A stretch of 64,000 bases of DNA. Origin: Candidatus Bathyarchaeota archaeon (GTDB taxonomy: Archaea > Thermoproteota > Bathyarchaeia > 40CM-2-53-6 > RBG-13-38-9). Numbering within the stretch: position 1 is the first letter of the stretch; each line of letters opens with the position of its first letter. Below, in pieces: positions 5,260-24,535 of this stretch. The DNA lies in NCBI GenBank assembly GCA_963807605.1, contig CAWECG010000001.1, positions 256,001 through 320,000 on the forward strand, read 5' to 3'. The translations under genes were made by a program, and so were the position numbers. The notes beneath the pieces are model-generated. The model worked only from the letters and a program-made list of their open reading frames with translations. It made no database searches and had not been told where the DNA came from.

Positions 5260-5859
5260 TTGAAGGACAACTCTCTTGAAGAAGCGATATTACGATTCAG
5301 TCACGAGGTCGGCAAGGCAAAGAATCTAGTACGTACTGGCTGGAGGGAGAAGGTCGGAGTCAAATCACCTGAATCAGTAGCTGACCATATGTACAGGACA
5401 GCTGTCATCTCGATGGTGATCAGTGATCTTGAAGGCTTGGATACAGAGAAAGTCTTGAGAATGTCTATTCTCGATGATCTTGCGGAGACTATTACAGGAG
5501 ATCTAACACCAAACCAGAAAAGGTCATATGGCCTCGCAAGAACTAGACAACGTGAAGAGAAGGCATTAAAGAAATTACTCTCGCTGCTACCAAGTTCTCT
5601 CTCAGAAAGGTACTCGGCAATTTGGAAAGAGGCCCAGCTGCAGAGATCTAAAGAGGCAAGACTTGTGAAGAGTTCCGACAAGTTGGAAATGGCTATACAG
5701 GCAACAGAGTATATGCAACAAAGTTACGATGCCAAGAAATTGGAGGAGTTCATAATCTCAGCCGGAGCTAAGATAGAAGGTCATCTTGTGGGGAAGGTCT
5801 TCAATAGTCTGAAAAAGAAATCTATTTGTTCGACCTCAGATGACTGGGACGCAAGATAA
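5260..5859 (+). CDS. HD-domain 5'-deoxynucleotidase (YfbR/HDDC2-like)
   Basis: RTGW...ESVADHMYR, DDLAETITGD and DKLEM motifs (the HD dyad reads DD here). Confidence 0.85.
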   Translation: MKDNSLEEAILRFSHEVGKAKNLVRTGWREKVGVKSPESVADHMYRTAVISMVISDLEGLDTEKVLRMSILDDLAETITGDLTPNQKRSYGLARTRQREEKALKKLLSLLPSSLSERYSAIWKEAQLQRSKEARLVKSSDKLEMAIQATEYMQQSYDAKKLEEFIISAGAKIEGHLVGKVFNSLKKKSICSTSDDWDAR

Positions 5860-6328
5860 TAAGTCGCTTTGTGATTTAGTGAGGGCGAAAATCTTGATAC
5901 CTGTTGTGATCACCCGTGATATTCTCCAGAAGATTAGATCTGGAATGAGCGTGCCATACGAACAGATAGGCCTGCTCATTGGGGAGCTCTCCAACGGCCA
6001 GCTGGTCATAAGTGACGCGATCAGTGGGACTTCCAGCGCAACCAGATCTCTTGCAATCCTCTCTACCGAAGTCCTGGCAGAGGTTGCCGATGACATAATT
6101 AACGGCCGAATAGCGGGAAGAATCTTGGGGTGGTATCATTCACATCTTGGAAGCGGAGTATTTATGTCAGCTATAGATATCGAAACACACTCCAAGCTCC
6201 AACAGTTCTCAAACCAAGTAATCGCCATGATAGTAGACACATCCTCGAACGAATTCGGAATATTTGTACACGATCCCCAGCTTGGAGGATTGGCTCAACT
6301 TCCGGAAGAATACATCACAATAATCTGA
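5840..6328 (+). CDS. JAMM/MPN+ metallo-isopeptidase, Rpn11/CSN5-like
   Basis: EQIGLLIG plus GWYHSHLGSGVFMSAID = E..HSH-x7-S-x2-D JAMM motif. Confidence 0.9.
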   Translation: MTGTQDNKSLCDLVRAKILIPVVITRDILQKIRSGMSVPYEQIGLLIGELSNGQLVISDAISGTSSATRSLAILSTEVLAEVADDIINGRIAGRILGWYHSHLGSGVFMSAIDIETHSKLQQFSNQVIAMIVDTSSNEFGIFVHDPQLGGLAQLPEEYITII

Positions 6329-7160: not shown

Positions 7161-8144
7161 ATGCCACAAGTCATCGAGTGGACGAATCCAAATCCAGACG
7201 ACATCATATGGAAGTTTCCAGACGAGCAGCTAACGTGGGGTGCCCAACTTATCGTTAAGGAGATGGAAGCTGCCGTCTTTTTCAGAGATGGTAAAGCGTA
7301 TGACGTCTTCGGCGCAGGTCGACACACAATAACAACGTTGAATCTTTCTTTGTTAGCGAGATCCCTTTCTAGTATTGCAGGGTACAGTCAGTCCCCCTTC
7401 AAGAGTATGGTATTCTTCGTATCGACACGGCAATTCGCTGGAAAGTTCGGAGCAAGGGCACAAACCACTGAGCTTGCCCCTCTGATGACTCACGGCTCCT
7501 TCTGGTTCAAGGTGGAAGATCCGTCGCTTTTCCTGAACGAGATCGTGGGGGCGCAAAATGTCTACACAACTTTCGACGTGAACAATTTCCTTCGTGGATA
7601 TCTAAACGAGAGGATTATTGATGAACTCTCAAGATACGATCTTGTTACTGTCTTCACGAAACTTGACGAGACTTCCGCGCAAGTCAAAGGTGCCATTTTT
7701 GACTACTTCAGAAGGATAGGTATGGAGCTCACTGACCTCAAATTCGAGGGGGTTGACACCGAACCTGAGTACAGGGAGAGGCTTTTCTGGCTTAAGGCAG
7801 GGAGAGTAGCTCCTGACGAGGTTCTCAGAATGGAGACGGTCAAACAGGCTGCTAAAGAGCTGGGAAAATCTGCTGGCGCTGGCTTTGGAACAGGCATGGT
7901 CATGGTTCCACCAATCTTTCAAGGGGCTGGAGGCTCAGGAGCCCCAGCCATGGCCTTGGTCTTCTGTCCAGGTTGTAATGCTCAGATACCCTCAACATCG
8001 AAGTTCTGTCCAAACTGCGGAAAGGACCTATCCACTCAGCAAGTCCCGCCTACGCAGGTTGAGCCGTCAAGGTGTCCAAAATGCAAGGAAATCGTACCTG
8101 TGGGCGCCAAGTTCTGCCACAACTGCGGCGCAACGTTAACCTAG
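7161..8144 (+). CDS. SPFH/band-7 domain protein with C-terminal double zinc ribbon (YdjI-like)
   Basis: VIEW..DDIIWKFP...QLIVKEMEAAVFFRDGK; four CxxC pairs at the C-terminus. Confidence 0.88.
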   Translation: MPQVIEWTNPNPDDIIWKFPDEQLTWGAQLIVKEMEAAVFFRDGKAYDVFGAGRHTITTLNLSLLARSLSSIAGYSQSPFKSMVFFVSTRQFAGKFGARAQTTELAPLMTHGSFWFKVEDPSLFLNEIVGAQNVYTTFDVNNFLRGYLNERIIDELSRYDLVTVFTKLDETSAQVKGAIFDYFRRIGMELTDLKFEGVDTEPEYRERLFWLKAGRVAPDEVLRMETVKQAAKELGKSAGAGFGTGMVMVPPIFQGAGGSGAPAMALVFCPGCNAQIPSTSKFCPNCGKDLSTQQVPPTQVEPSRCPKCKEIVPVGAKFCHNCGATLT

Positions 8145-16049: not shown

Positions 16050-16670
16050 TTGAGGGGATCAGGGATCGAGAGAAGAGCGCCTCAAAATTACTGCAACAGA
16101 TGCGGCTTTCCACTTCGATTTGTAGATGGAAGGCTCTGGTGTGACAACTGCAGAGCCTATCCTCTTGACAGGGAAATCGACGTTTCCAGTTTCTTCTCTC
16201 AGGTCGGGGGGCGACTGAGAAGAACTATTAATAGTCTAGAGAGAAGGCTTGGAGGTGAAACAGAGGATACGTCAAGAAGTGTTTATCCTCAGATAATTCC
16301 ACCAATAATCCCACCAATAATTCCACCAGCGCCTAGTATTCCTCCCCCGCGCGTGATCATCACGACCCCAATGAGAAGCGATCCTTACTCATCGACCGGC
16401 GGGATAGATGACAGGGTCTTCAGCTATATTGAGGCTCATAACGGAGAGATCTCACTCTCGAAAGCATCTGCAGACATTGGTATTCCCTTGAATGAACTCC
16501 AGGAAGCCGTAGAAAGACTACGTAACTCAGGTCGACTGTCACTTCAGAACGACCAGATCAACATACCAAGCTCCCCGGCGCCTTTACGCCGGAAAGTCTG
16601 TGTACACTGTTTCAGGCTCATAGATGTTGAGGATAGATACTGCACTGACTGTGGCTATGTGCAGCCATAG
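16050..16670 (+). CDS. Zinc ribbon / Pro-rich / winged-helix / zinc ribbon protein
   Basis: CNRC..CDNC; IIPP x3; RVFSYIEAHNGEISLSKASADIGIPLNELQEAVERL (wHTH-like); CVHC..CTDC. Confidence 0.65.
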   Translation: MRGSGIERRAPQNYCNRCGFPLRFVDGRLWCDNCRAYPLDREIDVSSFFSQVGGRLRRTINSLERRLGGETEDTSRSVYPQIIPPIIPPIIPPAPSIPPPRVIITTPMRSDPYSSTGGIDDRVFSYIEAHNGEISLSKASADIGIPLNELQEAVERLRNSGRLSLQNDQINIPSSPAPLRRKVCVHCFRLIDVEDRYCTDCGYVQP

Positions 16671-17346: not shown

Positions 17347-18006
17347 TCAGGCTTTTTGCTGCGAAATCCATCCTTCACAAATTCTTATACCGATAATGAC
17401 ATCCCTTGCATAGGCGTCGGCCCCTACCTTCTTTGCAAACTCCTCTGTCAAGGGTGCCCCTCCCAGAATCACCTTCACCTTTTCACGTAAGGAAGCTGCT
17501 TTTAACGCGTCTAGAACCTCTCCAATTCTCATCATAGTCGTACTCGTCAAAGCAGAGATTCCTATTATGCCCGGCGCCTCATCCTTGGCGGCCTTGACGA
17601 ACTTTTCTGAAGGTACATCTATGCCAAGATCGACGACCTCAAATCCTGCCCCCATTAGACTAACGACCACCAAGTTCTTTCCTATGTCATGCATGTCTCC
17701 AGGAGCACTTCCTATCACAACCTTTCCCCTGTACTTACCTTTCCCGCCTGCGAGGTGTGGCTTCAGAAGGTCAGAGGCAGCCTTCATTATTGTTCCCGCA
17801 ATGACAAGCTCACTTATGAAGTACTCACAGGACTCGAATTTCTGTCCGACTATGTTGCTTGCACCCCTCATCGTATCCATTATCTCGTAGGGCGAGATGC
17901 CGCTCTTCAGAGCTTCCCTTGTCGCGTCAAGTGTCTGCTCGAGTTTCAGCTCAACTATAGACTGCTTGAATCTTTCCAAGATCTCTTTCTGCGCCACCAA
18001 TATCAC
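17347..18006 (-). CDS. Methyltransferase-associated corrinoid protein (MtaC/MttC-like)
   Basis: DMHDIGKN (DxHxxG), SAL..T and GGAP B12-binding motifs; N-terminal cap domain. Confidence 0.93.
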   Translation of the reverse strand: MILVAQKEILERFKQSIVELKLEQTLDATREALKSGISPYEIMDTMRGASNIVGQKFESCEYFISELVIAGTIMKAASDLLKPHLAGGKGKYRGKVVIGSAPGDMHDIGKNLVVVSLMGAGFEVVDLGIDVPSEKFVKAAKDEAPGIIGISALTSTTMMRIGEVLDALKAASLREKVKVILGGAPLTEEFAKKVGADAYARDVIIGIRICEGWISQQKA

Positions 18007-18007
18007 C

Positions 18008-19222
18008 TTAGAGTTTTATTGGATACCCCCCATATTTGAGAACAGAGTCGTATAGGGCGCAGACATTCCATGGTGGAACCTCGGGTTGGATTATGTGTCC
18101 GGGTGCAACTATCATACCCCCACCGACCGCACCTTCCTTGATGACTCTAACTACTTCAGCCTCCACATCGGCCGGTGTACCTCGCGGCAATACCCTCTGT
18201 GAGCTTACGCCTCCACAAAAGGTAAGTTTGTGCCCGTATTTCTTCTTCAAATTCTCCAGCCCCATATCTGGACACTCCGGTTGAACTGGGTTAAGCACAT
18301 TTACGCCTTCTTCAATGAAGTCGTTGATGTACATGTCTACGTTTCCGCAACTGTGTAGGTAGATCTTCCCAGCCGTCTTTTTGTGTATGAAATCGTAGAT
18401 CTGTTTATGTCTAGGTTTTATGAATTCCCTGTAGGTTTTTGGACTGAGAAGTCCGGAAGTCTGAGCTCCCATATCGTCTGCGACTCCCACTAAAGTACAG
18501 TAGTCGCCTATTTGATCGAGCATCATTCCATACATCTGGATGAGCAACTTAGTCGCCTTGTCTAGGAGTGCATTTGCTATTTGTGGTCTGAAAAAGATGT
18601 CCTCAAGGAACTTGTTGAAGCCTCTTCGTTGCCATGATGTCTCGAACGGTCCACCCATAGGTGCTACGCAGCATACGGCGTAGCCTGCCTCATCGAGCTT
18701 CTTCGCCTTTCTATCAAGACCCTGAACCGTTCTATCCTTCTCTGGATCCGGCCAGTAGGGATCGTTTACAATCTCATTTATCGTATCTATCTGTTCAAGG
18801 GGGGCTGGACTGGCGAACTCCAAGTAGGTCTCGCCAGCCTTCCTATGAAAGCCACACTCGTCTATGAATGAATTGTCAGGCAGGAGTTTTTGAGGTATGA
18901 ATGGCCTGGGAAACCGTATCGATACAGGCCTGAAGTCTATTCTGAATCGCCTGTAAATCCTTTCGTCGATAGGAGTTGTCCACCAAGATGTATAATGCGT
19001 GCCGCCAGGCCAATAGTCGATCTCTTTGGAGAAGATAGGGAGATGCATGAAATGTTTAAGATTGAAGTATGACTGCTTCATCATGAAAGAGAGGCATCCG
19101 CCAAGTTCCGCAGGAACCCTGTCCGGCTCCTGGTGCTCAAGAACCTTCCAAACACGCTCTCTAGGCGTATACCGTTCGCCAGGGTATATTATGGCTTTTT
19201 CTCCCCGAGATATTGTCTCCAA
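18008..19222 (-). CDS. Uroporphyrinogen decarboxylase-family protein (MtaA/CmuA-like methyltransferase)
   Basis: EPDRVP, DDMG.Q, HSCG, LNPVQ and APGH motifs; coupled to the corrinoid gene. Confidence 0.88.
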   Translation of the reverse strand: METISRGEKAIIYPGERYTPRERVWKVLEHQEPDRVPAELGGCLSFMMKQSYFNLKHFMHLPIFSKEIDYWPGGTHYTSWWTTPIDERIYRRFRIDFRPVSIRFPRPFIPQKLLPDNSFIDECGFHRKAGETYLEFASPAPLEQIDTINEIVNDPYWPDPEKDRTVQGLDRKAKKLDEAGYAVCCVAPMGGPFETSWQRRGFNKFLEDIFFRPQIANALLDKATKLLIQMYGMMLDQIGDYCTLVGVADDMGAQTSGLLSPKTYREFIKPRHKQIYDFIHKKTAGKIYLHSCGNVDMYINDFIEEGVNVLNPVQPECPDMGLENLKKKYGHKLTFCGGVSSQRVLPRGTPADVEAEVVRVIKEGAVGGGMIVAPGHIIQPEVPPWNVCALYDSVLKYGGYPIKL

Positions 19223-19390: not shown

Positions 19391-19734
19391 GATGAGACTC
19401 CGGATGGTGCGGTGACATTCACTGCCCCACCTTCTCACAATCGAAAATCTACGAAGACAAGAAGGATATAGTCTTCGCAGTAAAGAAGCTCGACTCATCT
19501 GAGAGTGATTTCTACATTTGAGTCGATAAAGGGGGTCAGCTCATCTTCGACGGAGAATAGAATCCATTCATATGCCCCAATGAAGAAGAGATCCAACTAA
19601 TGGCCGTCGAGTCTACAGGTCGGATTGTTGCTCATACCTAGGCTTAACGCTTGTTTTCGGTCAATGCCTTTCGATGCGCTGTAGGATTCTAAGATTCTTT
19701 CGCTAAAGTGCGTCTTGGGAAGTTGTGGGGCATA

Positions 19735-20136
19735 CTACCAATAACGTTGAGGTGGAACGGAGAGACCGTAACATTGTGGACAGAACACCATGTTGAAGTA
19801 ATGTCTTCCACAGGCCTTACAGATCGAACGATTGCATCGACTGCATATGTACATAGCGGGAAGCTCACGATGGTAGCTGCAGGTACCCATAGAAGGAATC
19901 CTCATTGAGATAGCCCTTGCTTGAGGCATGGAAGGAGTTTGTTGAATCTGAGGGATACCCGTAGGTGAAATTACCCTAATTGCGGGGGCTGGCTTAGGCG
20001 CCGGTTGGACGGATACGGTTGGCGCTCCCACGGAGGCCATTGGAACGGTTGGAGGAGGATACATAGAACTTGCGCAGTTGTAACAGAACTTGGCTCTCTT
20101 TGGGTTAGCCTTGCCGCACTTTGGGCATGTTGGCAT
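19735..20136 (-). CDS. Zinc ribbon + Pro-rich linker + B-box zinc finger protein (candidate E3/adaptor)
   Basis: CPKC-x3-N-x6-CYNC; CSYH-x8-CSRC-x4-CKAC-x9-CPQC; 11 nt downstream of E1 with a GGAGG RBS. Confidence 0.8.
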   Translation of the reverse strand: MPTCPKCGKANPKRAKFCYNCASSMYPPPTVPMASVGAPTVSVQPAPKPAPAIRVISPTGIPQIQQTPSMPQARAISMRIPSMGTCSYHRELPAMYICSRCNRSICKACGRHYFNMVFCPQCYGLSVPPQRYW

Positions 20137-20147
20137 TTAATCCTCCC

Positions 20148-21389
20148 CTAGGTTAATCGGACAACAACTTCATTATATTCGCCGTCCTTTCTTTTAAGAG
20201 TAACTAGCAGATACTCTCCTCGCTTCAAGTCGCCTTTTCCCAGCGAATCTTCAAGGACTCTCGTTACAGGTTCCCGCGACAGATTAAACAACATGAAATC
20301 CTCAGCGTCCGGAAATAGCCTTTTTGAGATCTCGCTATGCGTCGATGAAATGAGTTCGTTGATGGGGACTTCAATTCTCCTAACTGTATCCTTTGCTTCC
20401 CCGTGTTCTCCGCAGACAAAGCAGTATTTGTTTTTTGCCAATTCGAGTATGGAGTACTTGTTGTATTTGAGGTCTGCAATCCAAATGCCTTCTAATGGTC
20501 TTCCAGCAGTCTCTGGCCATTCGCCGTCCTTCAGGTAAGCGGGATAGCCGAGAAGTATTTTGACAGCCTCCTGACTTTGGATTGATGCAACCAGAGATAT
20601 TGTCGTAGGAAGAGATGGAATTACAATCTCTTCAAGTGGTGCGTCGCAGGGGTTTCTCAGGCCAACTAATCTGCCGTACTGGTTGCCCGCTACGGGGCAC
20701 ATTGGGCATGGATCATCAGGAGGTATGTATGATTGAACTCTGCAGTGATACCCGGAAATCCCACCATCGACCATCGGTACAAGGTATCTGCGCGATGTCA
20801 AGGTCAAAGATACTCTGGAGGCAAAATTATCAAGGCCACTTATGATAAGGTCTGAATTCAAGAAGACTTCCAAGGGAAGTCTCTCAAGTCTACCCTCCAC
20901 CGCAGTGATCTCGAGGTGTGGATACTTGCGATGTAGCTTTTCAGCCAAAACCTTTGATTTGGGTTTCCCGAAGTCCGTCTTATCGAAAAAGAGCATCCGA
21001 CTCAGATTCGACACTTCAACTGTGTCATAGTCGACTATGGTGAAATGCCTGACTCCCACCATGGCCAAGTTCTTTACGGTCTCATTGCCTAGCGCACCGG
21101 CGCCAGCGATCAAGACCTTGGAGTCCCTCAACCTAGCCTGGCCTTGCTCACCCCACAGGATCATCTGGCGTGACCAGAAGTAATCGATCTCCAGCTTCTT
21201 TGATTCCAGTTGCAGCTTGTAGAGTTTGGAGGTCTCCCTTAGAGGTTTTCCGTCTAGGAGTAGTCTTGTCAGATCCGGTTCAAGACTGAGCTTGGCACAT
21301 ATTGTTTGCTTGAGCCTAGCCACAGTTGCCTTTGGTGGGATGTCGACCTCAACATCCCTAACTGATGGGATCCCTGCTAAAACCTTCAA
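20148..21389 (-). CDS. E1-like ubiquitin-activating enzyme (ThiF/UBA family) with N-terminal ubiquitin-like domain
   Basis: SRQMILWG, GAGALG, DYDTVEVSNLSR, LDN, CPMC/CFVC zinc site and putative catalytic Cys in NPCD; residues ~1-70 align by eye to ubiquitin. Confidence 0.9.
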   Translation of the reverse strand: MKVLAGIPSVRDVEVDIPPKATVARLKQTICAKLSLEPDLTRLLLDGKPLRETSKLYKLQLESKKLEIDYFWSRQMILWGEQGQARLRDSKVLIAGAGALGNETVKNLAMVGVRHFTIVDYDTVEVSNLSRMLFFDKTDFGKPKSKVLAEKLHRKYPHLEITAVEGRLERLPLEVFLNSDLIISGLDNFASRVSLTLTSRRYLVPMVDGGISGYHCRVQSYIPPDDPCPMCPVAGNQYGRLVGLRNPCDAPLEEIVIPSLPTTISLVASIQSQEAVKILLGYPAYLKDGEWPETAGRPLEGIWIADLKYNKYSILELAKNKYCFVCGEHGEAKDTVRRIEVPINELISSTHSEISKRLFPDAEDFMLFNLSREPVTRVLEDSLGKGDLKRGEYLLVTLKRKDGEYNEVVVRLT

Positions 21390-21407
21390 AACGTGTCCTT
21401 CAGAATG

Positions 21408-21992
21408 TCAAGGCCTATAGGGCCTTAGGATTGTGAATCTCACTACGTCCCTCTGGGGCGGCTGTCTGGCTGCGAGAGCAGGAACCGCTATTACGTTGAA
21501 TCTGACGGTGTCTGTTTCAGAGGCCTTCTTACGTGGTTTGTTCATCTTTGGGAAACCGAATTCGCCGCAGACCTTAGCTGCTTGCAAGCATTTTGGATAG
21601 TTGAAGACGTTGTCTGGATTTGGGTCCGAGAGGAGATAGTATAGTGAGTTTACAATGGAGACGAGTTTGAGGTTTGGCTTCCAGCTATCACCTAAGGTGG
21701 ATACGCAGACCGCGCCTGGAATATTTGGTACTATGTTTGGATGTGCTATCTCCGTTAGCCAAGTGACTATTGGAGGTTTGACGGGATAGTCGTCCTGCAG
21801 TTCCAACCTGAACCGTTGCCATTCGACGTATTCCGTGAAGGGCCATATCTTCTGTTCGGCCAGCCTCTTGACCTCGCCCTTCTCGCACCTGAGCATGCCT
21901 TCATAACTTGTTGGAGGATCGTTAAGCACTCTGACTGTTGGGAATTGGTGATTTAGAAAATCCTTTTCTTTGTAGAGTTGAGGTATGTTCAA
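21408..21992 (-). CDS. E2 ubiquitin-conjugating enzyme (UBC fold)
   Basis: DYPVKPP.V.W...IAHPNI.....GAVCVSTL...WKP...LVSIV..L..LLSDPNPD: HPN triad plus catalytic Cys. Confidence 0.93.
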   Translation of the reverse strand: MNIPQLYKEKDFLNHQFPTVRVLNDPPTSYEGMLRCEKGEVKRLAEQKIWPFTEYVEWQRFRLELQDDYPVKPPIVTWLTEIAHPNIVPNIPGAVCVSTLGDSWKPNLKLVSIVNSLYYLLSDPNPDNVFNYPKCLQAAKVCGEFGFPKMNKPRKKASETDTVRFNVIAVPALAARQPPQRDVVRFTILRPYRP

Positions 21993-21995
21993 TGC

Positions 21996-22247
21996 TTAAC
22001 CGCCAATAATGTTGTATGGCATCAGAGCCAGCTGGGCGTTCTCGGGAATTCCAGCGGCGGCGACTGATATGCTGTCGTCAAGCATGACTCCACCGTACAT
22101 CAATGAGACTGTTGTCTGGTCGATCCCGAATGAGCTGCAGACCTGTTGTTTAATCTCACTTATTGTATGTTCTGGAAGTACGTCGATCTCGGCAAGCCCG
22201 GACTGTGGTCCAATCGGCGCTTGAATAAATAACTTCATAGAAGACAC
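21996..22247 (-). CDS. Ubiquitin-like protein with C-terminal Gly-Gly
   Basis: EIDVLPEHTISEIKQQV / GIDQTTVSLMYGGVMLDD resemble ubiquitin LEVEPSDTIENVKAKI / GIPPDQQRLIFAGKQLED; ends IIGG-stop; GGAGGTGA RBS. Confidence 0.9.
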   Translation of the reverse strand: MSSMKLFIQAPIGPQSGLAEIDVLPEHTISEIKQQVCSSFGIDQTTVSLMYGGVMLDDSISVAAAGIPENAQLALMPYNIIGG

Positions 22248-22296
22248 TCACCTCCAGACTGAGTTTCGGGCATGAACATAAATCTTGTCATGGTTC

Positions 22297-23382
22297 TCAA
22301 GGCTGAACTGTGAGTGTTACTTGCGCGGTGTGTGTTAAAGTGCCGTCCGTGGCTTGAACTGTTATTGTGAATGTTCCGATTGGAGATAGACCGTTCGAGG
22401 TCACCATCAATGTCACCTGCTGGAAGGGCCCTCCTAGAACGGTCTCGTTTTGGAAGGTTGTGAATGTGTATCTAATGTTTGTGGGTAGACCTGACGCTGA
22501 TAACATAACCGCATGGACGTATCCATTCTCCGCATTCATTGTAACATTGTAGAATGCTGCCGCGCCACGCCGGATCGTTAGTATGTTCGGTGTTACTGAG
22601 AAACCAAAGTCACCAGGAGGATTAACCTTCACGGTCATCGTACTAGTCTGAGTTAGATTTCCGCTTGATCCCGTCAAGCTTGTTGTGTATATTCCTGCTG
22701 GAGCTGAGGTTGTCGACGATATGATCATGTTGGATGTCACTGTGCCGTTAGGTGGTGGCGTTACGGCTGGCGGATTAAAGGAGGCTGTGACTCCCGAGGG
22801 AAGACCTGACATCGACAGGGACACGCTTGAGCTGAAACCTCCCTTAGAACCGACAGTAATCGTCGTGCTGTTACTAGTACCAGCAGATAACACGACAGTT
22901 GAGAGTTGGGCGGAGATATTGAATTCTCTAACTAGGATGAAATATCCCACGGTGTTTGCGGAAAGACCCAGCCCATTAACAGCCGTAATATAGTAAGTTA
23001 TGCTTGAAGTAACGTCACTTCCAGGGATCACTCCAACGTATGGCTCAGAACCTGAAGGAAGCGTCATTGACTTGGTCTTCCAAACTGCCTTGTCCACAAC
23101 GTTATAGAACAAGGTTACATTCTGGACCCAACTGCCTCCTCCGAAGACCAATGCGCTGATGCTGATTGGGCTATTCCCCAAGCCTATCGTAACTGGAGTG
23201 TGAGTGATGCTGGGAGGTCGATAGATGAACAGAACTATTAGAGCAGTCGATGTCAAAAGTAATCCGGCAAATAGGATCACTAACAACACCACAAGTAGTG
23301 GTCGCCTTGAGGGTCTGGGAGATCTAGGATAATATGCACGAGGTGGCGGCCTTGAAGGTGGATAATAATGTTCTATCACCAT
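22297..23382 (-). CDS. Single-pass membrane protein with Pro/Tyr/Arg-rich N-tail and extracellular Ig-like repeats
   Basis: N-terminal YYPPSRPPPRAYYPR, one TM helix, then Ser/Thr-rich beta-sandwich repeats (V.LS.SGLP). Confidence 0.75.
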   Translation of the reverse strand: MVIEHYYPPSRPPPRAYYPRSPRPSRRPLLVVLLVILFAGLLLTSTALIVLFIYRPPSITHTPVTIGLGNSPISISALVFGGGSWVQNVTLFYNVVDKAVWKTKSMTLPSGSEPYVGVIPGSDVTSSITYYITAVNGLGLSANTVGYFILVREFNISAQLSTVVLSAGTSNSTTITVGSKGGFSSSVSLSMSGLPSGVTASFNPPAVTPPPNGTVTSNMIISSTTSAPAGIYTTSLTGSSGNLTQTSTMTVKVNPPGDFGFSVTPNILTIRRGAAAFYNVTMNAENGYVHAVMLSASGLPTNIRYTFTTFQNETVLGGPFQQVTLMVTSNGLSPIGTFTITVQATDGTLTHTAQVTLTVQP

Positions 23383-23522
23383 TTTCTTATCTCCAGCCTT
23401 CAGATGAGAATAATCTATGAATATTGTTTGCGCTCTTTTTTGGCATATCAGATTACCCTCACATGGTGCCTGTACACACGCTGACGTAGAGCGCTCTCGT
23501 GCCTCCAGAAACCGGGGACAGT

Positions 23523-23536
23523 AAAAAGAGGGGGGG
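23523..23536 (-). terminator. Pyrimidine/T-tract terminator candidate
   Basis: CCCCCCCCTCTTTTT-like tract on the minus strand just after the stop at 23546. Confidence 0.4.
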
Positions 23537-23545
23537 TGGAAAGTA

Positions 23546-24535
23546 TTACTTTCCGAGTATGCCCAGTATTCCGCCTACCAATCCAAAGAGCAACGCAACT
23601 ATGCCTAATGCTATTGGCGCGTAGACTTCCATCGTTGGTACCACTATCAGTAGGGCGAGGTAGATGTTGGCCAGAGAGAAGACGAAGGCTATGATGCCTC
23701 CGAGCGTTGTGTATCCCAACCGAATCAGGAATGCGCCCAATATTACAACTAGGCCTAGTAGCAATCCAACTCCAAGCGGGGCGAGTACGTACGGTGCTAG
23801 CCAAGACGGGACTATTGCCGTGTTGAGGTAGAGTAGTGCTGTAGCTGATGCGCCCGCGACTATCGCGAGTATTCCAGCAATCAGTGATAGTAGGAAGCCC
23901 CATAGAGCGTATGACCTACCCTGCGGGAAGATCATCGGTAGTGGACCTTGGACTGCGGCCATTGGGCCTCCCATCATTGGACCCATTGGTGCTCCCATAC
24001 CCATTGGTGGTCCCATCATTGGACCCATTGGTGCTCCCATACCCATTGGTGGTCCCATCATTGGACCCATTGGTGCTCCCATACCCATTGGTGGTCCCAT
24101 TGGACCCATTGGTGCTCCCATACCCATTGGTGGTCCCATTTGACCCATAGTGGGCATTGGAGCTTGTGGGTAGCTTGGTGGATATGCTGTTGGATAGCCG
24201 CCTTGATAGGCCGGCTGGTAGGATGGCGTTGATATTGGAACTATTCCGGCATAGCATTGTGGGCACAGGACCAAGTCACCGTAGAAGCGTGCGTCGTCTC
24301 TGCAAATTGCTCGTCCGCATCGACTGCAAATGTATTGGGCTGGAAGGCTCGGGTGATAGTAACACATTCCTGGCGGTGGAACTCGATATGGAATTGATGA
24401 AGGGACGGCGGGTCTAACAACCTTTACTGAAGGGACTGGTTTGACAGCTGGAGCTGCAAACGATGTCCCGCAACTTGAACAGAATGTTGCGTCGTCTCTG
24501 TTGGCAGCGCCACACTTTGGACATTGCTTTACCAT
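23546..24535 (-). CDS. Zinc ribbon + B-box + Met/Gly/Pro repeat + multi-pass membrane protein
   Basis: CPKC-x3-N-x6-CSSC; CYYH-x8-CSRC-x4-CRDD-x9-CPQC; MMGPPMGMGAPMGP repeats; about 4 C-terminal TM helices. Confidence 0.8.
   Translation of the reverse strand: MVKQCPKCGAANRDDATFCSSCGTSFAAPAVKPVPSVKVVRPAVPSSIPYRVPPPGMCYYHPSLPAQYICSRCGRAICRDDARFYGDLVLCPQCYAGIVPISTPSYQPAYQGGYPTAYPPSYPQAPMPTMGQMGPPMGMGAPMGPMGPPMGMGAPMGPMMGPPMGMGAPMGPMMGPPMGMGAPMGPMMGGPMAAVQGPLPMIFPQGRSYALWGFLLSLIAGILAIVAGASATALLYLNTAIVPSWLAPYVLAPLGVGLLLGLVVILGAFLIRLGYTTLGGIIAFVFSLANIYLALLIVVPTMEVYAPIALGIVALLFGLVGGILGILGK
23970..24134. repeat. Coding tandem repeat (3 x 42 bp + 1 x 39 bp)
   Basis: Unit cccatcattggacccattggtgctcccatacccattggtggt at 23970, 24012 and 24054; a 39-bp variant at 24096. 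Confidence 0.95.

Follow-up and report, generated by a model that had tools for sequence, protein, structure and literature searches.

Archaeal operons that combine genes for E1, E2, a RING finger protein and Rpn11 are the main evidence for ubiquitin signalling before eukaryotes. To our knowledge, only the Caldiarchaeum version of this operon has been tested experimentally. Its small RING finger protein has been proven to act as an E3 (PMC5654768). Here, we describe a related gene cluster located at positions 19735-24535 of a 64,000-nucleotide (nt) stretch of a Candidatus Bathyarchaeota archaeon genome (contig CAWECG010000001.1, positions 256,001 to 320,000; hereafter "the window"). The cluster encodes a ubiquitin-like modifier (Ubl), an E2, an E1, an immunoglobulin (Ig)-like membrane protein (IgTM), and two proteins that carry zinc ribbons and B-box-like fingers, one membrane-anchored (BBmem) and one small and soluble (BBsol). 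We estimate a probability of roughly 0.7 that the cluster is a working Ubl conjugation system, homologous to the Caldiarchaeum/Asgard E1-E2-ubiquitin systems and vertically inherited in one order of Bathyarchaeia.

Within the same phylum, UQ_con genes (90-107 bits) occur in four other families, at loci comprising a JAB gene and the series Ubl-E2-E1-small RING finger; one of these loci we take to be that of Caldiarchaeum subterraneum. Searches with phmmer relate the Bathyarchaeia proteins to this Caldiarchaeum type with E-values of 1e-15 to 1e-18 for E2, 1e-28 to 1e-39 for E1, 1e-6 to 1e-8 for Ubl, and 1e-16 to 1e-19 for JAB, and hhalign aligns the E1 proteins with an E-value of 3e-54 over residues 72-401, the C-terminal Ubl-fold domain (333-401) included. 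By these comparisons, the Bathyarchaeia cluster is a clear but distant, diverged homologue of the Caldiarchaeum ubiquitin operon. The two have in common homologous Ubl, E2, E1, and JAB proteins, the gene order Ubl-E2-E1-small zinc finger, an E1 with a C-terminal Ubl-fold domain, and, in many Bathyarchaeia relatives, a Ubl precursor with residues after the terminal Gly-Gly (GG). They differ in six respects: the Bathyarchaeia finger is B-box-like and preceded by an N-terminal zinc ribbon, whereas the Caldiarchaeum-type finger is RING (zf-RING_2, about 40 bits); a second, membrane-anchored finger paralogue is present; JAB is fused to a transmembrane (TM) helix and Ig-like ectodomains or, as in the window, lies outside the operon; E1 carries one more Ubl domain, at its N-terminus, but not the insertion of roughly 60 residues that follows the first CxxC of the Caldiarchaeum-type E1 (hhalign); E2 has a divergent N-terminal part and a conserved tail; and the cluster has an associated gene, g7, for a protein with Ig-like, TM, zinc-ribbon, and winged helix-turn-helix (wHTH) parts. 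The original prediction, made from the DNA letters, had called the system distinct from the Caldiarchaeum/Asgard type; the non-RING fingers and the membrane parts support that distinction, whereas the homologous proteins and the shared Ubl-E2-E1-finger order do not.

We found no description of the Bathyarchaeia cluster in the literature searched or in the supplement of PMC5654768, although a figure somewhere may depict it. Bathyarchaeota are not mentioned in the Caldiarchaeum papers or their supplement, and a report on single-cell genomes of the Miscellaneous Crenarchaeotal Group refers in passing to "ubiquitin modifier system-related proteins" (PMC4571567). Public records name the E2 and label the finger proteins hypothetical.

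The Ubl-E2-E1 core and its distribution

The six genes of the cluster are intact and lie in the same orientation on the minus strand (Table 1). The spacers between Ubl and E2, E2 and E1, and E1 and BBsol measure 3, 18, and 11 nt, respectively, those between BBmem and IgTM and between IgTM and Ubl 163 nt and about 50-58 nt. The open reading frame (ORF) coordinates are those of the co-oriented, closely spaced genes of the original prediction, which had also placed an Ig-like membrane protein and a membrane B-box protein upstream, in agreement with the TM predictions, Pfam matches, and finger pattern (with zf-B_box below its cut-off). Its count of six genes is correct for the window but overlooked the seventh conserved gene, g7, of which the window contains a remnant. 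The flanks are ordinary metabolism genes: a corrinoid protein and a URO-D-type methyltransferase on one side, and a geranylgeranyl-reductase-like gene and ribose-5-phosphate isomerase on the other.

Table 1. Positions of the cluster genes, the g7 remnant, and two JAB genes outside the operon (window coordinates unless a contig is given; aa, amino acids).
Feature	Position	Strand	Size	Remarks
BBmem	23546-24535	-	329 aa	membrane zinc-ribbon/B-box-like protein
IgTM	22297-23382	-	361 aa	Ig-like membrane protein
Ubl	21996-22247 (ORF)	-	83 aa (80 aa from ATG 22238)	ends GG-stop
E2	21408-21992	-	194 aa	
E1	20148-21389	-	413 aa	
BBsol	19735-20136	-	133 aa	small soluble zinc-ribbon/B-box-like protein
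g7 remnant	about 19403-19620	+		decayed; tblastn, stops and frameshift
Stand-alone Rpn11-like JAB	5840-6328	+	162 aa	outside operon; Pfam JAB 35.6 bits
Coiled-coil JAB protein	contig C3, 934240-935178	-	312 aa	coiled-coil N-terminal half, C-terminal Rpn11-like JAB

Ubl matches the Pfam ubiquitin family (PF00240) at 32.9 bits (cut-off 25.4) and TUG-UBL1 at 37.6 bits, and the same search gave no match to ThiS (PF02597) at E up to 1. The alignment, together with a Shine-Dalgarno-like GGAGGTGA upstream, suggests that Ubl starts at the ATG rather than at the GTG (22247) that opens the ORF. Its C-terminus reads NIIGG-stop. Ubl is the best-conserved protein of the cluster, with a mean column identity of 73%; among 19 aligned sequences, 50 columns are invariant, and so is the GG. 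In 11 of the 19, 1-8 residues follow the GG, which points to proteolytic maturation as in ubiquitin precursors; Caldiarchaeum ubiquitin is likewise made as a precursor with residues beyond the GG (PMC5654768).

E2 matches UQ_con (PF00179) at 63.4 bits and comprises a UBC core, a divergent N-terminal part, and a conserved C-terminal tail. The core aligns residue by residue with UbcH5-type E2s, with C96 positioned on the catalytic Cys; the aligned motifs are YP-x-KPP (YPVKPP, loop 4), HPN (residues 84-86), Cys96, W-x-P (W-K-P, loop 7), and DPNP. The columns invariant among relatives include H84, P85, N86, C96, and W104, and the best matches in the PDB are eukaryotic E2s (E about 1e-12 to 1e-15). 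Judged by Pfam score (63 bits vs 90-107 bits), the Bathyarchaeia E2 is less like eukaryotic E2s than is the Caldiarchaeum-type E2.

E1 matches ThiF (PF00899) at 172 bits and ubiquitin at 31.8 bits on residues 11-63. An extra Ubl domain (1-70) at the N-terminus precedes the ThiF adenylation domain, which is followed by a C-terminal domain of beta-grasp-like type (337-412). The AlphaFold2 (AF2) model (predicted local distance difference test [pLDDT] score 86.5) contains the corresponding N-terminal beta-grasp, adenylation domain, and separate C-terminal domain (337-412), and its top Foldseek match is UBA3 (E 2e-20). Invariant in relatives are the CxxC pairs at 228/231 and 323/326 and Cys248, which sits in a flexible crossover loop modelled with low confidence (246-258). 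The domain identities, the catalytic motifs, and the conserved synteny set out below are plain in these data, and the Pfam matches and invariant residues bear out the predicted Ubl ending in GG, E2 with HPN and catalytic Cys, and E1.

A GG-ending modifier may also act only as a thiocarboxylate sulfur carrier of the ThiS/MoaD/SAMP kind, here for cofactor or tRNA thiolation, for example with the MoaE encoded at about 39.7 kb, and the MoeB-like short crossover loop and CxxC zinc sites of E1 fit this role. However, Ubl belongs to the ubiquitin family and not to PF02597, its gene is always accompanied by that of a canonical E2 carrying the catalytic Cys and, in relatives, by a JAB gene, and the Pfam search detected no rhodanese domain on E1. 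Furthermore, five ThiS/MoaD genes and a better MoeB-type E1 (ThiF, 241 bits) are present elsewhere in the genome, indicating that sulfur transfer is covered there. We regard a pure sulfur-carrier function as hardly credible. Like the cluster, sampylation (SAMP/UbaA/HvJAMM1) and the bacterial Bil systems have a ThiF-type E1, a JAMM protease, and a beta-grasp modifier that ends in GG. Sampylation, however, lacks an E2, and its modifiers are of the ThiS/MoaD type; the Bathyarchaeia cluster has a canonical UBC E2 and a ubiquitin-family Ubl. That E1, E2, and Ubl carry out conjugation chemistry is quite probable.

Among 61 relatives, 42 have E2, as do 23 of the 29 that are at least 90% complete; of 301 genomes searched class-wide, E2 was found in 54, all but one within the window's order. 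In 20 loci fetched from six families of the order, the gene order Ubl-E2-E1 is the same throughout, BBmem lies upstream of Ubl in every locus whose contig extends far enough, and a BBsol-type gene follows E1 in all families but f5. An independent search of species-representative genomes, using a pattern from the E2 alignment, returned 38 loci with the same layout, all 38 in Bathyarchaeia/Bathyarchaeota metagenome-assembled genomes (MAGs), as expected for the predicted eukaryote-like operon of a Bathyarchaeia genome. Co-occurrence of the B-box genes with Ubl, E1, and E2 in relatives, which had been named beforehand as a point on which the prediction could fail, extends across both the fetched and the pattern-found loci. 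The arrangement is not due to chance, as the gene order recurs across relatives' loci. Identity to the nearest relatives is 69% for BBsol and 72-92% for the core proteins Ubl, E2, and E1. In nearly all genomes searched, the cluster is single-copy, and its presence follows family lines; on this distribution, it is conserved across one order of Bathyarchaeia and probably inherited vertically there.

These data also bear on the possibility that the cluster is an antiviral defence module of the Bil/CBASS-Cap2 kind, which would conjugate Ubl to invader proteins. The set Ubl, E2, E1, and JAB is that of Bil systems, and the Rossmann part of E1 matches PADLOC "E1-E2" models at up to 64 bits. However, the E1 matches cover only the generic nucleotide-binding part, no PADLOC model matches E2, Ubl, or the fingers, and the PADLOC matches of JAB, both the stand-alone protein in the window and the operon-fused form, are faint (19-20 bits). 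Bil genes are sporadic defence genes, whereas the cluster is kept as a single copy along family lines, in most high-quality relatives and with flanking genes conserved within the family; its almost invariant Ubl is the opposite of an arms-race gene. A defence function is very unlikely.

One Bathyarchaeota MAG has two full copies of the cluster on different contigs, which may reflect either a genuine duplication or the mixing of two strains; 8% contamination is listed for the corresponding genome.

The B-box-like finger proteins

In BBsol, a Pro-rich linker containing a KPxPxV+ motif joins an N-terminal zinc ribbon (C-x2-C-x3-N-x6-C-x2-C) to a C-terminal B-box-like binuclear finger with ligands C86, H89, C98, C101, C106, C109, C119, and C122. 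All 12 zinc ligands, including the eight of the finger, are invariant in 17 sequences. BBmem has the same elements in the order N-terminal zinc ribbon, conserved KPVPSV+VV linker motif, and B-box-like binuclear finger, followed by Pro/Gly/Met-rich repeats and about four C-terminal TM helices (207-329, hydropathy scan). Its finger, C-x2-H-x8-C-x2-C-x4-C-x2-[D/C]-x9-C-x2-C, has ligands conserved in 19 homologues. In a joint alignment of 31 fingers, seven ligands are invariant and the sixth is C or D.

The finger pattern follows B-box 2 up to the sixth ligand, where BBmem has the Asp variant. Thus, as in eukaryotic TRIM/B-box proteins (PF00643), there is an eight-ligand binuclear finger that starts C-x2-H-x7-9-C-x2-[CD]-x4-C-x2-C and is tied to a ubiquitin-type cascade. 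In contrast to TRIM/B-box proteins, the Bathyarchaeia proteins are devoid of RING, coiled-coil, and SPRY domains, a 9-residue loop leads to a last ligand pair of C-x2-C rather than H-x2-4-[CH], Pfam scores lie around the cut-off, and structural matches are non-specific. In particular, BBmem matches Zn_Ribbon_1 at 34.8 bits, DZR at 29 bits, and zf-B_box at 16 bits, while BBsol matches Zn_Ribbon_1/DZR above cut-off and zf-B_box at 22.8 bits, below the cut-off of 24.1 bits. Nevertheless, 16 of 17 BBsol homologues match zf-B_box at E up to 0.01 (best 5e-7). A profile of the 31 fingers, searched against 1.8 billion proteins, returned 702 matches, among them proteins above the Pfam B-box cut-off (34-53 bits), a B-box fused to an Rce1-like CAAX protease, and a B-box with a helix-turn-helix.

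The AF2 model of the BBsol finger has a pLDDT of about 90 over residues 90-125. Its best structural matches are FYVE, RIM, PHD, LIM, piggyBac cross-brace, and B-box fingers, all with Z-scores of 2.3-4.8. A profile search of PDB sequences returned no B-box, the matches being the zinc-ribbon proteins ArnA and eL40 and a double-zinc-ribbon protein; a feature search of the ESM Atlas gave scores of 0.81-0.86, to be read as a lead only. We assign the BBsol/BBmem finger to the prokaryotic B-box radiation with moderate confidence, since the structure searches do not discriminate among binuclear fingers. The radiation is retrieved by the Bathyarchaeia finger profile and likewise shows membrane association. 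A passage in PMC4506424, citing Burroughs et al. 2011, links prokaryotic B-boxes to membrane-associated peptidases and not to ubiquitin; by contrast with that account, the Bathyarchaeia fingers are strictly linked to Ubl, E2, and E1.

Several features suggest that the fingers may serve as E3s. BBsol occupies the slot after E1 that the small RING finger occupies in Caldiarchaeum-type operons, so that the predicted B-box finger in the E3 position is found where expected. As also predicted, there is no RING E3: the genome, which is 94% complete, yields no zf-RING_2 match with E up to 0.1, and its B-box-like matches are confined to the two finger genes of the operon. BBmem is present in every cluster variant, and E2 retains the loop-4 and loop-7 motifs that bind RING-type fingers. 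BBmem is thus a candidate membrane-anchored E3 or adaptor, and BBsol a candidate soluble E3 or adaptor. A predicted complex of the E2 core (1-160) and BBsol finger (76-133), computed with alignments, scored 0.01, which gives no verdict on binding.

A competing explanation accepts the cascade but regards the B-box proteins as receptors for Ubl, as substrates, or as scaffolds that serve membrane proteases or the stability of membrane proteins, functions of a kind suggested for other prokaryotic B-box proteins, with E2 acting without an E3. The peptidase link in that passage of PMC4506424 and the Rce1-like fusion retrieved by the profile agree with this explanation, as do the N-terminal ribbon spacing, which is that of RanBP2/NZF fingers, a weak alignment of the ribbon with the TAB2 NZF bound to di-ubiquitin (Z 2.4, 27 residues), the dispensability of BBsol in some lineages, and the lack of similarity to the RING small finger protein. 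Against it stand the confinement of B-box-like fingers to the operon, the retention of BBmem in all variants, the RING-slot position of BBsol, and the RING-binding loops of E2. We consider the receptor or scaffold explanation an appreciable possibility, though one that is doubtful at present. What speaks for an E3-like role rather than a receptor or adaptor role is the position of the fingers, their strict linkage, and the loops that E2 has kept, while the absence of RING hallmarks and the fact that some lineages have lost BBsol urge caution; we therefore hold an E3 role of the B-box proteins, drawn by analogy from position, only tentatively, at a little short of even odds.

Two further proteins carry related zinc-binding parts. 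A 983-aa protein in the representative library has a close relative of the finger (E 9e-17), flanked on one side by WD40 repeats with an InlB-type repeat and on the other by a Ser/Thr protein kinase domain. In the window, a 327-aa protein (7161-8144, plus strand) has an SPFH/Band-7 domain and, at its C-terminus, a double zinc ribbon whose Pfam type (Zn_Ribbon_1/DZR) is also that of the ribbons of BBmem, BBsol, and g7.

Ig-like membrane proteins and JAB proteases

IgTM has a single TM helix (about 24-56), which separates a short, Pro/Arg-rich stub in the cytoplasm from Ig-like ectodomains; the protein matches DUF5980 at 36.8 bits. In most families, its orthologue is longer (500-555 aa) and consists of an N-terminal Rpn11-like JAB (PF01398, 43-60 bits), a TM helix, and the Ig-like part. 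Families f2, f5-f8, f10, and f16, as well as a single f1 genome, have a JAB (43-63 bits), either fused or separate, between BBmem and Ubl; one genome in the window's family encodes it as a separate gene at this position. A Pfam search found no JAB within 19735-24535, and the operon of the nearest relatives is also JAB-less, as it is, with intact genes, in five further genomes of the window's family. In three loci of one genus of that family (g3), Ubl follows BBmem after about 460 nt, and no Ig-like or JAB homologue was detected between the two, so the Ig-like/JAB component is variable even inside the family.

The genome encodes, outside the operon, two Rpn11-like JABs and one classical prokaryotic JAMM protein. 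The first Rpn11-like JAB, at 5840-6328, has the JAMM motif H-S-H-x7-S-x2-D and is one of two candidate deconjugases in the genome. We rejected the possibility that it is the operon JAB split off: the JAB tree places it in a separate clade ("a", support 97/96) of stand-alone paralogues that coexist with an operon-fused JAB in other genomes. Because of this coexistence, its role appears to be separate from the operon. It follows an HD-domain phosphohydrolase gene (HD_3, 120 bits), which it overlaps by 20 nt (5260-6328, plus strand). The second, the coiled-coil JAB protein, has a 326-aa orthologue in a second genome and was seen only in these two of the genomes examined, both of which have a JAB-less operon; the tree leaves its origin unplaced, and its neighbours are unrelated Fe-S and sulfur-transport genes. 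The contrast drawn in the original prediction with Rpn11-containing operons thus fails for the system as a whole, given the JAB-TM-Ig fusion in most relatives and the two Rpn11-like JABs elsewhere in the genome.

g7 is convergent to the 3' end of the operon in relatives and is present in 20 of 20 fetched loci. Intact g7 proteins have 550-700 aa, with Ig-like ectodomains, a TM helix, and a cytoplasmic tail with a wHTH and, in most lineages, a zinc ribbon (Pfam matches Big_1, Big_3_5, Zn_Ribbon_1, and HTH_24). In the window, the remnant lies inside the 512-nt gap before the next gene and has two in-frame stops and a frameshift; tblastn detects 48% identity over g7 residues 48-112, interrupted by stops. 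With the operon JAB missing and g7 decayed, the window holds a trimmed version of the cluster. A second candidate remnant, at 16368-16538 (tblastn, g7 C-terminus), was rejected as part of a conserved paralogous small gene. This gene (16050-16670, plus strand) encodes a 206-aa protein with DZR zinc ribbons, a stretch of which resembles the g7 cytoplasmic tail (tblastn, 44% identity to g7 residues 600-653); small paralogues occupy the same relative position in relatives.

The decayed g7 and the JAB-less operon could mean that the cluster in this genome is a non-functional relic undergoing decay. This is highly improbable: all six ORFs are intact, identity to the nearest relatives is high for the core and BBsol alike, the five further JAB-less genomes of the family have intact genes, and the two Rpn11-like JABs are available elsewhere in the genome.

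A proposed conjugation pathway

A working conjugation system homologous to that of Caldiarchaeum would be expected to operate as follows. The 80-aa Ubl ends in GG and would need no processing in this genome. E1 would adenylate Ubl and pass it to the loop residue Cys248, from which it would be transferred to Cys96 of E2. E2 would be recruited through the C-terminal Ubl-fold domain of E1, and the conserved E2 tail could possibly be bound by the extra N-terminal Ubl domain of E1. Ubl would then be attached to target lysines, with BBmem and BBsol most likely serving as E3-like adaptors, the former delivering E2~Ubl to membrane targets and the latter to cytoplasmic ones. Rpn11-like JAB proteases would reverse the modification and, in relatives in which residues follow the GG, would also mature Ubl; in most of the order, the JAB would be membrane-tethered, with Ig-like ectodomains. 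The convergent g7-type protein, with its Ig-like, TM, zinc-ribbon, and wHTH parts, is a likely partner or target. The tethered JAB and the g7 protein together suggest a role in membrane-proximal signalling or quality control, although a membrane signalling role of the cluster is, in our judgement, questionable. In an extended form of the proposal, both B-box proteins would be genuine E3 ligases, and the cluster would be a membrane-proximal modification switch that controls a membrane-tethered zinc-ribbon-wHTH regulator, with both the ligase and the Ig-bearing deconjugase anchored in the membrane; we view this form as somewhat unlikely.

Several observations weigh against the proposal of a conjugation system with B-box-type fingers. 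Both window fingers score below the zf-B_box cut-off (BBsol 22.8 bits, BBmem 16 bits), and fold searches with the BBsol model (Z under 5) do not distinguish a B-box from a FYVE, PHD, LIM, or RING finger. hhalign of the BBsol finger with the Caldiarchaeum-type RING finger gives a probability of 19%, and the profiles do not align. The BBsol finger also lacks the Trp and the linchpin Arg that have been shown to matter in the Caldiarchaeum small RING finger protein (PMC5654768). BBsol is missing from family f5 and from the single cluster-bearing genome outside the order, indicating that the system can do without it. This genome has lost both g7 and the JAB of the operon, so the local copy may work unlike the ancestral one. 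Finally, for all components, the proposal is built on sequence and model data.

The cluster indicates that a second, widely sampled archaeal lineage, the Bathyarchaeia of wetland, peat, soil, and sediment, has long kept the same core, paired here with fingers of another family, with anchoring in the membrane, with Ig-like ectodomains, and with an E1 that contains two Ubl-fold domains. If the extended form of the proposal is correct, this would be the first prokaryotic ubiquitin-type system to use B-box rather than RING fingers, and TRIM-like B-box use and membrane ubiquitin signalling would predate eukaryotes outside the Asgard archaea. If the B-box proteins are ligases, the pre-eukaryotic E3 repertoire would widen, and Ubl, E2, E1, and BBsol would form a small soluble four-protein set that can be expressed and assayed directly.

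The public sequencing runs that we found are DNA metagenomes from sediment, soil, peat, marsh, and wetland, with no RNA data set among them. Directly downstream of the cluster, at 17347-19222 on the minus strand, lie the genes for the corrinoid-binding protein (B12-binding, 88.7 bits) and the URO-D-family methyltransferase-like protein, a pair that is kept beside the cluster only in the window's own family.

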